A stretch of 29,893 nucleotides of DNA from a virus, in the UHGV virus genome UHGV-0172517; one strand, 5' to 3'. A program made the translations under genes and the position numbers. Shown here in pieces: positions 7,016-9,055 of the stretch. The notes beneath the pieces were generated by a model that was not told where the DNA came from, ran no database searches, and saw nothing but the letters and a program-made list of their open reading frames with translations. How positions within the stretch are numbered: position 1 is the stretch's first letter; every line of letters begins with the position of its first letter.

Positions 7016-7479
7016 GCAGAGTCACCGCGATTATTTATGCTCTGGTTATCTGCATCATCGTCTGCCTGTCGTGGGCGGTCAATCATTACCGTGATAACGC
7101 CATCGCCTACAAAGAACAGCGTGATAAAAAAGTCAGTGAGCTGAAGCAGGCGACCGCCACCATTACTGACATGCAGATGCGTCAGCGTGATGTTGCTGCG
7201 CTCGATGCAAAATACACGAAGGAGTTAGCTGATGCGAAAGCTGAAAATGATGCTCTTCGGCGCAAGCTTGATAATGGTGGTCGGGTGCTCGTCAAAGGAA
7301 AATGCTCTGTGCCATCCTCAGCCGAAACCTCCAGCGCCTCCGGCATGGGCAATGATGCCACCGTCGAACTCTCTCCAGTTGCTGGACGAAACGTTCTCGG
7401 TATCCGGGACGGAATCATCAGAGACCAGACAGCACTGAGAACGCTTCAGGAATATATCAGGACGCAATGCCTTCGATGA
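7012..7479 (+). CDS. Rz: Spanin inner-membrane subunit Rz (i-spanin)
   Basis: 155 aa; N-terminal [30 protein letters not shown]… and …[30 protein letters not shown] match lambda Rz; the C-terminal third diverges from lambda. ATGA overlap with R. Confidence 0.9.
7232..7438 (+). CDS. Rz1: Spanin outer-membrane lipoprotein subunit Rz1 (o-spanin), embedded in the +1 frame of Rz
   Basis: 68 aa ORF wholly inside Rz; AAGGAG SD 7 nt upstream; [21 protein letters not shown]… carries a lipobox (VVGC) and a Pro-rich mature region ([11 protein letters not shown]), like lambda Rz1. Confidence 0.85.
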
Positions 7480-7651
7480 TAGCGATAATTTTACTCATCA
7501 TCCTTCACATTTGGCTCTGTAGACAGGGTGGTGATCACTTCTGGAGTGAATCCAGATTAAATATCTCATTGCTGATGCTTGATATTGAGCATCTTGCGCG
7601 CGGTAAGGGGCTGCGTTGAGATAAGAGCCAGTCATTACAAATACCAGGATT

Positions 7652-7678
7652 TAGCCTCGTATTCGCGGGGCTTTTTAT
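7652..7678 (+). terminator. Candidate rho-independent terminator downstream of the lysis cassette
   Basis: gcctcg-tattcg-cggggc hairpin with one G-U pair, followed by ttttt. Confidence 0.4.
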
Positions 7679-7714: not shown

Positions 7715-7970
7715 GATAATGGTTTATACCCTACACGGGATAACTTAACTGATATCCCTTTTAAAGGATAAAGGTATTCAAGCCTGACACATCATGCGCT
7801 GTATCGTCGCCGTATTCCCGTATTAACAGAGACCGTAGCCCGACGGGGAACTCCTTCTGCGCGAGTGTGCGGGAATAATCAAAAACGATGCACACCGGGG
7901 TTACCGGGTACACATATTTCATCATGCCAGCGAGTCCGGTTCTGGCACGGAAGAAACCGGACGTTATGAT

Positions 7971-8381
7971 TTAGTGCGGAAATATTTGTGTAGTGTTCTG
8001 AATGTTCTCAGTAAAGAGTAATGAATTATCAAAGGTATAGTAATACCTTTTGTTTTCGTGGATATTTGTAATCCATCTGAAAACCCCTGCTGTAGCAAGA
8101 TTTTTCCTGTATTCGTAAAATGATAACTCTCCTGATTTGAATCCTTTTAAGGTGGCTTCTATAAGGCATTTATTTTTTGAAAATCTTACATTTACAACCT
8201 TACCCTGTCCTTTTATTAAAACCGTATTATCGTTTTCAAGAACAAGATGAATATTCTCTGTAGCTAAATAGTAAATGTAATGTGAGACATTGTGACGTTT
8301 TAGTTCAGAATAAAACCAGTGATAGTTTAAATTATTTCGCACTTTATCGAATATTTGTTTAAAAATGGCAACCTGAGCCAT
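7971..8381 (-). CDS. DUF1398 / YbcV-like moron protein (function unknown)
   Basis: ORF track 7971..8396; the second ATG at 8381 has a better SD (GGAAGG) than the first. AT-rich gene on the opposite strand to all phage genes; position between Rz and terminase matches ybcV in DLP12-type prophages. Confidence 0.6.
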
Positions 8382-8437
8382 TGTGGTACCTTCCATGTGA
8401 TATGAGGGGCGTAGTCTGCACGATTATCTAAATTGCT

Positions 8438-8671
8438 TCAATCTGGTCTGATCTGTTTTCTGAGCAATTCAGTAATGTCACTCTTTTCTTTGTTTGCTTC
8501 AGGAGAAACTCTTTTTTCTGAGCACAGTCTCCGGCGGCAGGCTTCAATGACCCAGGCTGAGAAATTCCCGGACCCTTTTTGATCAAGAGCGATGTTAATT
8601 TGTTCAATCATTTGGTTAGGAAAGCGGATGTTGCGGATTGTTGTTCTGCGGGTTCTGTTCTTCGTTGACAT
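8438..8671 (-). CDS. Ribbon-helix-helix-like small protein (YlcI / DUF3950-like)
   Basis: 77 aa; RNIRFPNQMIEQINIALDQKG…NFSAWVIEACRRRL fits a beta-strand/helix/helix RHH DNA-binding fold; AT-rich; located just upstream (on the minus strand) of the YbcV-like gene and adjacent to cos. Confidence 0.6.
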   Translation of the reverse strand: MSTKNRTRRTTIRNIRFPNQMIEQINIALDQKGSGNFSAWVIEACRRRLCSEKRVSPEANKEKSDITELLRKQIRPD

Positions 8672-8844
8672 GAGGTTGTCCCGTATTTAGTGTCGCTGAT
8701 TTGTATTGTCTGAAGTTGTTTTTACGTTAAGTTGATGCAGATCAATTAATATGATACCTGCGTCATAATTGATTATTTGACGTGGTTTGATGGCGTAGAT
8801 GCACGTTGTGACATGCAGATGATAATTATTATCATTTTGCGGGT

Positions 8845-9055
8845 CCTTTCCGGCGATCCGACAGGTTACGGGGCGGCGACCTCGCGGGTTTTCGCTATTT
8901 ATGAAAAATTTCCGGTTTAAGGCGTTTCCGTTCTTCTTCGTCATAACTTAATGTTTTTATTTAAAATACCCTCTGAAAAGAAAGGAAACGACAGGTGCTG
9001 AAAGCGAGCTTTTTGGCCTCTGTCGTTTCCTTTCTCTGTTTTTGTCCGTGGAATG
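8845..9055. other. Phage cos site: cosQ/cosN (GGGCGGCGACCT cohesive-end sequence at ~8870-8881) and the cosB terminase-binding region
   Basis: Seen: …cgacaggttacg|gggcggcgacct|cgcgggttttcgctatttatgaaaaatttccggtttaaggcg… matches the joined lambda right and left ends, ~190 nt upstream of nu1. Confidence 0.85.

Follow-up and report, generated by a model that had tools for sequence, protein, structure and literature searches.

The minus-strand gene pair at positions 7971-8671 of the viral genome UHGV-0172517 is a common, already annotated set of ynfO/ydfO-type prophage genes beside the packaging site, and both genes are known and annotated. The reading that best fits the locus, held at somewhat better than even odds (about 55%), is that of two separable accessory genes: an Arc-like regulator gene fixed at the right chromosome end, and a separately promoted, AT-rich cargo gene. 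Gene identity, selection, distribution, separability, and fold were computed here in support of this reading. The evidence speaks against a toxin-antitoxin module at this position, which is not supported. The locus is matched in about 90% of complete Escherichia coli genomes, usually in several copies, and is present in phage lambda. With the toxin-antitoxin reading set aside, the pair poses two separate questions: what job the strongly constrained Arc-like protein does beside the packaging genes in lambdoid and Shiga-toxin phages, and what the orphan-fold DUF1398 protein binds. The remaining interest lies in the strongly conserved N-domain of the DUF3950 protein, fixed beside the packaging genes.

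Gene layout and DNA signals between Rz and cos

The window, by which we mean the whole stretch of 29,893 nucleotides that was analysed, is a lambdoid prophage whose late operon is still complete. Its plus strand carries a Q-type antiterminator gene, the holin, endolysin, and Rz genes, then cos, Nu1, A, and the head and tail genes. Two minus-strand open reading frames lie between Rz and cos, at 8438-8671 (77 aa) and at 7971-8396 (141 aa, the longest open reading frame), and they occupy different reading frames of the window. The first-pass annotation had placed a minus-strand pair beside cos, and both reading frames are found where it put them, with 200 bp between the ynfO start codon and cosN. 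The cos site at 8841-8882 is assigned on its sequence and the established lambda layout. The features of the locus are listed below from the cos side inward, each with its basis.

8841-8882, plus strand: cosQ (8841-8847) and the 12-nt cohesive end of cosN, GGGCGGCGACCT (8871-8882); sequence and lambda cos layout
8818-8834, no strand: perfect 8-1-8 palindrome ATGATAATAATTATCAT; sequence
8672-8870, minus strand: region 5' of ynfO up to the right chromosome end, 98% conserved in lambda-type phages; comparison
8438-8671, minus strand: ynfO-type gene for a 77-aa DUF3950 (YlcI/YnfO family) protein; Pfam, NCBIfam, and RefSeq identity
8525-8671, minus strand: conserved N-domain, codons 1-49, with a basic arm, the strand motif N-I-R-F-P, and a predicted pair of helices; homologue alignment and model
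8438-8524, minus strand: variable C-terminal tail of the 77-aa type (CSEKRVSPEANKEKSDITELLRKQIRPD); homologue alignment
8441-8457, minus strand: PdhR-box-like sequence AACAGATCAGACCAGAT at the 3' end of ynfO; sequence comparison
8413-8441, minus strand: candidate DUF1398 promoter, TTGAAG (8441-8436), 17 nt, CAGACT (8418-8413); inferred from conservation
8382-8437, minus strand: 56-nt spacer between the two genes, including the ribosome-binding site GGAAGG (8389-8394); sequence
7971-8381, minus strand: DUF1398 gene, 136 aa, 31% GC, with the longest open reading frame running from 8396; Pfam and RefSeq identity
7934-7962, minus strand: hairpin starting 9 nt past the DUF1398 stop codon, with an 8-bp GC-rich stem and without a U tract; folding

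The DUF1398 gene likely starts at the ATG at 8381, since GGAAGG lies 7 nt upstream and PGAP chooses this codon in near-identical genomes. The gap between ynfO and the DUF1398 gene is therefore 56 nt (41 nt if the longer reading frame is taken), and it measures 56-58 nt in 21 of 22 distinct related pairs. The gene order given by the first-pass annotation thus stands, but its sizes, a protein of about 137 aa lying 40 bp downstream, become 136 aa and 56 nt from the likely start. Its statement that these are the only genes on the opposite strand also holds in near-identical annotated prophages, where the pair comprises the only minus-strand genes from the replication/Q region to the tail genes. 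A third minus-strand candidate, a 54-codon reading frame at 7761-7925, is interrupted by stops or frameshifts in lambda, DLP12, and another relative, and is therefore not a gene. Two apparent Rosetta-stone fusions of DUF3950 with DUF1398 are gene-calling artefacts; in P0134 a TGA stop is translated as W, and P0130 is a deletion-type variant.

The pair is AT-rich, as had been claimed: the GC content is 31% in the DUF1398 gene and 44% in ynfO, whereas the late genes have 56% and the window as a whole 54%. The earlier annotation also proposed that the genes are transcribed independently of the late operon; this is likely, because they face the opposite way and the K-12 homologues in cryptic prophages are transcribed and host-responsive (PMC7660256, PMC4077768).

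The DUF1398 gene may have its own promoter, overlapping the ynfO stop codon. The window, Qin, DLP12, lambda, and an IS-flanked copy share both hexamers of the candidate and the distance between them, whereas the sequence in between varies; the second hexamer takes the form CA(G/A)ACT. The PdhR-like box, which every layout retains as well, has the GGT form in K-12 Qin and DLP12, and GAT in one half-site in the window, a change that would predict a loss of control by PdhR. PdhR boxes are found upstream of ybcV and, in Qin, at the ynfO end; the GGT form was selected by PdhR in vitro, and ybcV mRNA is down 10-fold in a pdhR mutant (PMC7660256). Expression of ydfO is induced by ionic liquid (PMC4077768) and changes on over-production of DicC.

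A scan with the sigma-70 consensus returned no minus-strand sites, including upstream of ynfO, and the total number of sites equalled that expected by chance. The palindrome on the cos side is conserved in lambda, DLP12, Qin, and the IS-flanked copy (L161), and it overlaps a plus-strand promoter-like site at 8808-8835. No operator or palindrome common to the lambda-type and HNH-type upstream regions was found. At the other end of the pair, the 56-nt stretch 7920-7975 that holds the hairpin folds at -15.2 kcal/mol (z -1.9), and the hairpin could serve as the transcript end or as a stabiliser. A search for known RNA families at the locus found none.

The DUF3950 and DUF1398 proteins

The 77-aa protein belongs to DUF3950 (PF13132; E 5e-21, 74.7 bits against a Pfam cut-off of 25) and matches the NCBIfam model YlcI_YnfO_N (NF041551; 35.7 against a cut-off of 30). 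It is identical to RefSeq WP_000105084.1 (‘YlcI/YnfO family protein’) and 95% identical to K-12 YnfO. In the homologue alignment, the N-terminal 50 or so residues are nearly invariant, whereas the tails are unrelated; at least eight unrelated tail types occur in other phages, which places a mosaic junction near codon 50. Over codons 1-49, dN/dS is 0.03-0.15 at dS 0.4-2 in comparisons with copies of the Stx-phage/HNH type and with a Nu1-adjacent copy that lacks DUF1398 (L159). In the Stx/HNH-type copies, the DNA 5' of the start codon is unrelated and the protein is kept. Given the low dN/dS and this unrelated upstream DNA, the conservation of the N-domain reflects a genuine protein under strong constraint and does not simply follow from that of cos.

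That the DUF3950 N-domain is an Arc-like ribbon-helix-helix (RHH) is likely but unproven. The register against P22 Arc aligns TIRNIRFP with PQFNLRWP, followed by two helices, and hhalign against the Arc family profile gives P 0.0024 at a probability of 12%, a score that is reached by one in 300 column shuffles. The AF2 monomer model, with a moderate pLDDT of 67, has an extended N-terminus and then helices at 19-32 and 34-52; it lacks the strand, which is expected of a monomer modelled without its dimer partner. The best PDB matches from Foldseek are nearly all RHH proteins (Arc, NikR, ParD2, Reg576, and TCP domains), all at E > 1, and a weak PHROG match is HicB-like. No Pfam RHH family, Arc included, matches at E up to 1, and no PDB sequence profile matches. 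The first-pass description of the protein as RHH-like is thus weakly supported: the hhalign result and the RHH-dominated Foldseek list favour it, but Foldseek significance and the Pfam RHH families do not.

The 136-aa protein was correctly called as DUF1398/YbcV-like. Its Pfam match to DUF1398 (E 3e-43) lies above the curated cut-off, the fold is as in YdfO, and the sequence is 75-78% identical to YdfO and YbcV and identical to RefSeq WP_000079508.1 (‘DUF1398 domain-containing protein’). YdfO is soluble, and its NMR structure (2HH8) gives the fold: an orphan alpha/beta architecture with an internally duplicated alpha-alpha-beta3 unit. The DUF1398 sequence has no signal peptide and no membrane segment. 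The gene is under purifying selection, with dN/dS of 0.2-0.4; positive selection in the variable centre was considered and rejected, every segment having pN/pS < 1. Comparison of the protein with toxin families and folds gave no match. A reading as a HEPN RNase was also discarded: the Pfam HEPN_AbiA_CTD match scores 15.8 bits against a cut-off of 27, the fold is alpha/beta and not an all-helical bundle, and the Rx4H string RHNVSH is gone in distant family members. A search of PADLOC-DB returned no defence match beyond a chance-level Csx23 hit (E 0.025). The labels ‘head protein’ and ‘envelope protein’ that databases attach to DUF1398 homologues are misleading.

The literature on the DUF3950 and DUF1398 families reports no tested function, so the earlier remark that their function is uncharacterised still applies. 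Knock-down of lambdap78, the lambda DUF1398 gene, does not reduce lambda plating, and the gene is not needed for plaques (PMC10695390). The neighbouring lambdap79 activates the Vulcan NADase defence, and phages that escape Vulcan lose lambdap79 by recombining with Qin, which yields a layout of the window type (bioRxiv 10.64898/2026.09.04.749371). In one TraDIS study, ydfO has a low transposon insertion index (PMC5821084); the same low-insertion list also holds many AT-rich horizontally acquired genes and known antitoxins. Over-produced YdfO has been said to confer oxidative-stress protection, but that claim goes back to the mis-citation of a paper on YfdO, and published lists of ylcI mutations are uninformative, probably through mis-mapping of paralogues.

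Distribution, linkage, and alternative readings

A 1.6-kb region around the pair is matched in 4900 of 5426 complete E. coli genomes (about 90%), with a median of two places per genome; places that span at least 80% of it occur in 1028 genomes. GenBank phage records hold DUF3950 in 154 cases and DUF1398 in 43. In 122 unique IMG/VR loci with DUF3950, the gene upstream is Nu1 or HNH wherever it can be identified; in a few loci it cannot, or the flank is too short. Stx phage 2851 has DUF3950 as its sole reversed gene, 41 bp away from the HNH gene at the start of the packaging module. An apparently wide taxonomic spread (Staphylococcus, Bacillus, Kitasatospora, Flavobacterium, a ‘Campylobacter phage’, and others) was rejected as contamination with lambda control DNA, the contigs of about 3.5 kb or 48.5 kb being identical to lambda.

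Every lambdoid DUF1398 gene in the genome scan has DUF3950 upstream, and in IMG/VR the DUF1398 gene follows the 77-aa tail type only (51 of 52 evaluable loci, against none of about 60 loci with at least eight other tails). Some 30 more distant chromosomal DUF1398 loci have no DUF3950 within 6 kb; such solitary genes occur in Escherichia (the ycgX type), Kluyvera, Pseudocitrobacter, Citrobacter, and Salmonella diarizonae, and no conserved neighbour was found for them. Neighbours recognised by reading the sequences are, among others, BluR/BluF, a DUF1471-like protein, and proteins with a GGDEF or a cold-shock domain. One tail of the 77-aa type is paired with DUF1398 alleles that are 75% identical to each other. 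Because each gene has solitary copies and tails do not covary with alleles, the link between the 77-aa tail and DUF1398 is best read as physical linkage within one mosaic block whose junction lies near codon 50. The strictness of this link and the constant gap of 56-58 nt could also reflect co-transcription and a functional tie in this subgroup.

In the reading of two separable accessory genes, the ynfO-type gene would encode a small DNA-binding protein with a 49-residue Arc/Mnt-like RHH N-domain. The gene is a fixed lambdoid landmark, always reversed and directly before the first packaging gene, whether Nu1 or HNH, where the virion DNA has its right end. YnfO is most likely a dimeric transcription regulator, presumably made in the lysogen or on entry, when the late operon is off. 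The DUF1398 gene would be AT-rich cargo in the variable slot between this landmark and the lysis genes; it appears to carry its own conserved upstream signals, and its K-12 homologues respond to host regulators. Its product would be a soluble, non-enzymatic 15-kDa protein that probably binds a host or phage macromolecule in the lysogen. For this prophage, we infer DNA binding, expression in the lysogen, the internal promoter, and the binding type of action.

The first-pass annotation had likened the pair to an antitoxin-toxin or regulator-effector module. As an obligate module of either kind it is not supported: each gene is common alone, tails and partners do not covary, and the second protein has no toxin family or fold. 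A type II toxin-antitoxin system, in which YnfO would be an RHH antitoxin and autorepressor and its C-terminal tail would neutralise a DUF1398 toxin, is suggested by a small DNA-binder gene placed first with the gene for a protein of about 136 aa 56 nt downstream on the same strand, by the RHH-like N-domain and its weak HicB-like PHROG match, by the almost invariable succession of the 77-aa tail type and DUF1398, and by the presence of ydfO on the TraDIS low-insertion list alongside known antitoxins. It is nevertheless very unlikely. In many enterobacterial chromosomes DUF1398 has no DUF3950 within 6 kb of it, E. coli ycgX being one case, and DUF3950 stands alone in more than 100 phage records; identical tails accompany DUF1398 alleles of 75% identity; and the sub-threshold HEPN_AbiA match falls on an Rx4H string that the family does not conserve. 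In lambda and DLP12 an opposite-strand gene splits the two, and ybcV is still expressed (PMC7660256). Production of YdfO in quantity for NMR (2HH8) also suggests low toxicity. An operon in which YnfO autoregulates a bicistronic transcript and DUF1398 acts as a non-toxic effector, for example in superinfection exclusion or against other phages, is less improbable, though still unlikely. The common strand and constant spacing agree with it, as do the variable cargo that related phages hold in the lysis-packaging slot and the AT-richness of DUF1398, a frequent trait of acquired accessory genes; and because the lambda neighbour lambdap79 activates Vulcan (bioRxiv 10.64898/2026.09.04.749371), this part of the genome has a role in defence interplay. 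Against such an operon, regulator and effector are each conserved where the other is missing, the DUF1398 gene retains its own upstream block when parted from the regulator gene, PADLOC yields no match, and the literature reports no phenotype.

Lambda DNA enters the cell right end first. Host RNA polymerase might therefore read the pair inward from the entering virion DNA, and the genes would then have an entry role such as counter-defence; this proposal fits the placement and direction of the genes with respect to cos, which lambda-type phages conserve and for which HNH-type phages show an analogue. Its chance is nonetheless slim: the consensus scan shows no promoter, the lambdap78 knock-down has no plating effect on a laboratory host (PMC10695390), and cryptic prophages, which never inject DNA, still retain and express homologues (PMC7660256, PMC4077768). 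A broader and doubtful proposal makes the DUF3950 N-domain a universal Arc-like regulator of lambdoid and Stx phages, located at the first-entering end, read inward, and acting at entry or in the lysogen. It might silence a cos-proximal promoter, so that no terminase is made from the prophage, or switch on end-proximal counter-defence cargo, including the new-fold DUF1398. Scarcely credible is a structural virion or envelope role for DUF1398. Only labels favour it (‘head protein’ for phrog_413 and in RefSeq, and ‘putative envelope protein’ for lambdap78), whereas the gene is oriented opposite to the late operon, homologues lie in chromosomes with no phage genes nearby, and the protein is soluble, with a solved NMR structure and neither signal peptide nor membrane segment. 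The proteins that make up the lambda head are well known, and the DUF1398 protein is not known to be among them. The gene is also dispensable for lambda plaques (PMC10695390).

Comparison with known systems

The K-12 Qin genes ynfO (b4533) and ydfO (b1549) have the same arrangement as the window: a Nu1 homologue, a cos remnant, ynfO, a gap of about 57 nt, and the DUF1398 gene, with ynfO and the DUF1398 gene on one strand. The YnfO proteins are 95% identical and both have the 77-aa tail type, whereas Qin YdfO is only 75-76% identical to the DUF1398 allele of the window. Qin also differs in its PdhR-like box (GGT, against GAT in the window), and the window prophage, unlike Qin, has a complete late operon.

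Homologues of ylcI and ybcV were correctly placed at this locus in DLP12 and lambda. As in the window, both families lie there between cos and the lysis genes: DLP12 has ylcI, the opposite-strand ybcW, and ybcV, and lambda has a ylcI-like reading frame, lambdap79, and lambdap78. The lambda ylcI-like reading frame is unannotated in the classical record. The first 54 or so codons of ylcI and the DNA on the cos side are 95-96% identical to the window, and the DUF1398 proteins 76-78%. The lambda/DLP12 form equals the window form plus an insert of about 610 bp that carries ybcW/lambdap79 and replaces about 50 nt of the ynfO tail, giving a 64-aa YlcI and setting the two genes about 650 bp apart. The last 21 nt of ynfO and the next 60 or so nt remain joined to ybcV as an upstream block of about 80 nt. 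The window holds no homologue of lambdap79, and bor, which lies downstream in lambda and DLP12, is absent from it.

The ParD-ParE, RelB-RelE, and HicA-HicB systems resemble the pair in gene order, in sizes, and in an RHH-like first protein. In contrast to RHH-type toxin-antitoxin systems, the second protein here has no toxin family or fold, the genes are often alone, and tail and partner do not covary.

The lambda ‘morons’ bor and lom are, like the pair, non-essential genes among late genes, and such genes are expressed on their own in lysogens (PMC7067206). For the pair, orientation and GC content are as expected of morons; the lambda homologue of DUF1398 is non-essential (PMC10695390), and expression is shown only for the K-12 homologues (PMC7660256, PMC4077768). 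The conserved upstream block is a candidate promoter, although the consensus scan gives no minus-strand site. The bor gene encodes an outer-membrane lipoprotein with a serum-resistance phenotype, whereas YnfO and DUF1398 are not exported and have no known phenotype; in lambda, bor occupies the same slot as the pair in the same reversed orientation.

The Arc and Mnt proteins of P22 differ from YnfO in that YnfO has no significant sequence or fold match to them by standard thresholds, and in that no antirepressor gene lies downstream of ynfO. The likeness is one of build and position. All share a domain of about 50 aa in which a basic arm at the N-terminus precedes a strand motif of the form N-x-R-aromatic-P and then two helices, predicted ones in YnfO; and, as in the immI layout of the Arc and Mnt genes in P22, ynfO is a putative regulator gene embedded against the late operon of a lambdoid phage.

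DNA between the ynfO-type gene and Nu1

Two predicted features occupy the DNA that separates the minus-strand ynfO-type (DUF3950) gene from Nu1, the one lying within the other:

8687-8944, minus strand: 85-codon ORF that runs across cosN
8808-8835, plus strand: sigma-70-like site (GTGACA, 16 nt, TATCAT; 10/12, the best match in the region)

The ORF is called as a gene in some assemblies, and a match to phrog_9395 (E 5e-26) covers its C-terminal portion. It sits in DNA that is conserved for cos, it is split in two in virion DNA, and part of it is taken out by a deletion of about 50 nt in the IS-flanked copy (L161). This ORF is probably not a gene. The predicted sigma-70-like site faces cos and Nu1 and overlaps a perfect 17-bp palindrome (8818-8834), which is retained in lambda, DLP12, Qin, and the IS-flanked copy.

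Published YdfO claims and apparent host range

The sole published "phenotype" of YdfO, the DUF1398 protein of the cryptic prophage Qin, is raised oxidative-stress resistance upon over-production (PMC4077768, citing PMC3105296). This attribution is a gene-name mix-up: PMC3105296 deals with YfdK, YfdO, and YfdS, which belong to prophage CPS-53, and ydfO appears nowhere in it. Although ydfO belongs to the non-essential Qin, a prophage that has been deleted whole (PMC3105296), TraDIS alone assigns it a low transposon insertion index (PMC5821084 Table 2); its companions on that list include several antitoxins and numerous acquired genes that are AT-rich.

Homologues of both proteins are carried on contigs of about 3.5 kb or about 48.5 kb that are lambda DNA (L016-L036, L047-L050; P0014, P0029, P0093; MW057783.1), labelled as Staphylococcus, Bacillus, Kitasatospora, Flavobacterium, Pedobacter, "Campylobacter phage CJLB-4", and others. 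Contaminating lambda sequencing control looks to be the source of these homologues, and lambda DNA filed under other labels inflates the apparent host range of the DUF3950 and DUF1398 families. DUF3950-DUF1398 "fusions" in the databases and C-terminally extended DUF1398 proteins (P0134, P0130, P0122, P0139) are not real domain fusions; these forms result either from translating TGA as sense or from frameshifts in reads of the lambda control.

Comparison with lambda, DLP12, and Stx-type phages

Downstream of the DUF1398 gene, the window carries two plus-strand features at or beyond the end of Rz:

7467-7619, plus strand: 50-codon ORF overlapping the end of Rz, "hypothetical" in RefSeq
7653-7672, plus strand: terminator-like hairpin with a T run, after this ORF and within the late operon

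In lambda and DLP12 this slot holds bor, whereas bor is missing from the window. Of the lambda/DLP12 DNA separating the DUF1398 gene from bor, a homologous stretch of about 180 bp is all that the window keeps.

In HNH-type lambdoid phages (the Stx-type loci L155, L156, and L163), the DUF3950 gene and an HNH endonuclease gene are divergent, with start codons just 41 bp apart, and all three loci share a TAAAAT hexamer about 30 nt before the DUF3950 start. Lambda itself has an intact ylcI-like (DUF3950) ORF between lambdap79 and cos (J02459.1 48157-48303, minus strand; 2772-2936 in L003, the lambda copy); its annotation is absent from the classical lambda, DE3, and HK629 records.

Compared with window positions 8382-8671, the lambda and DLP12 (L006) layout contains an insert of about 610 bp with ybcW/lambdap79, which is reported to activate the Vulcan NADase defence. 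Phages with the window-type layout lack this trigger, and no homologue of lambdap79 occurs in the window.
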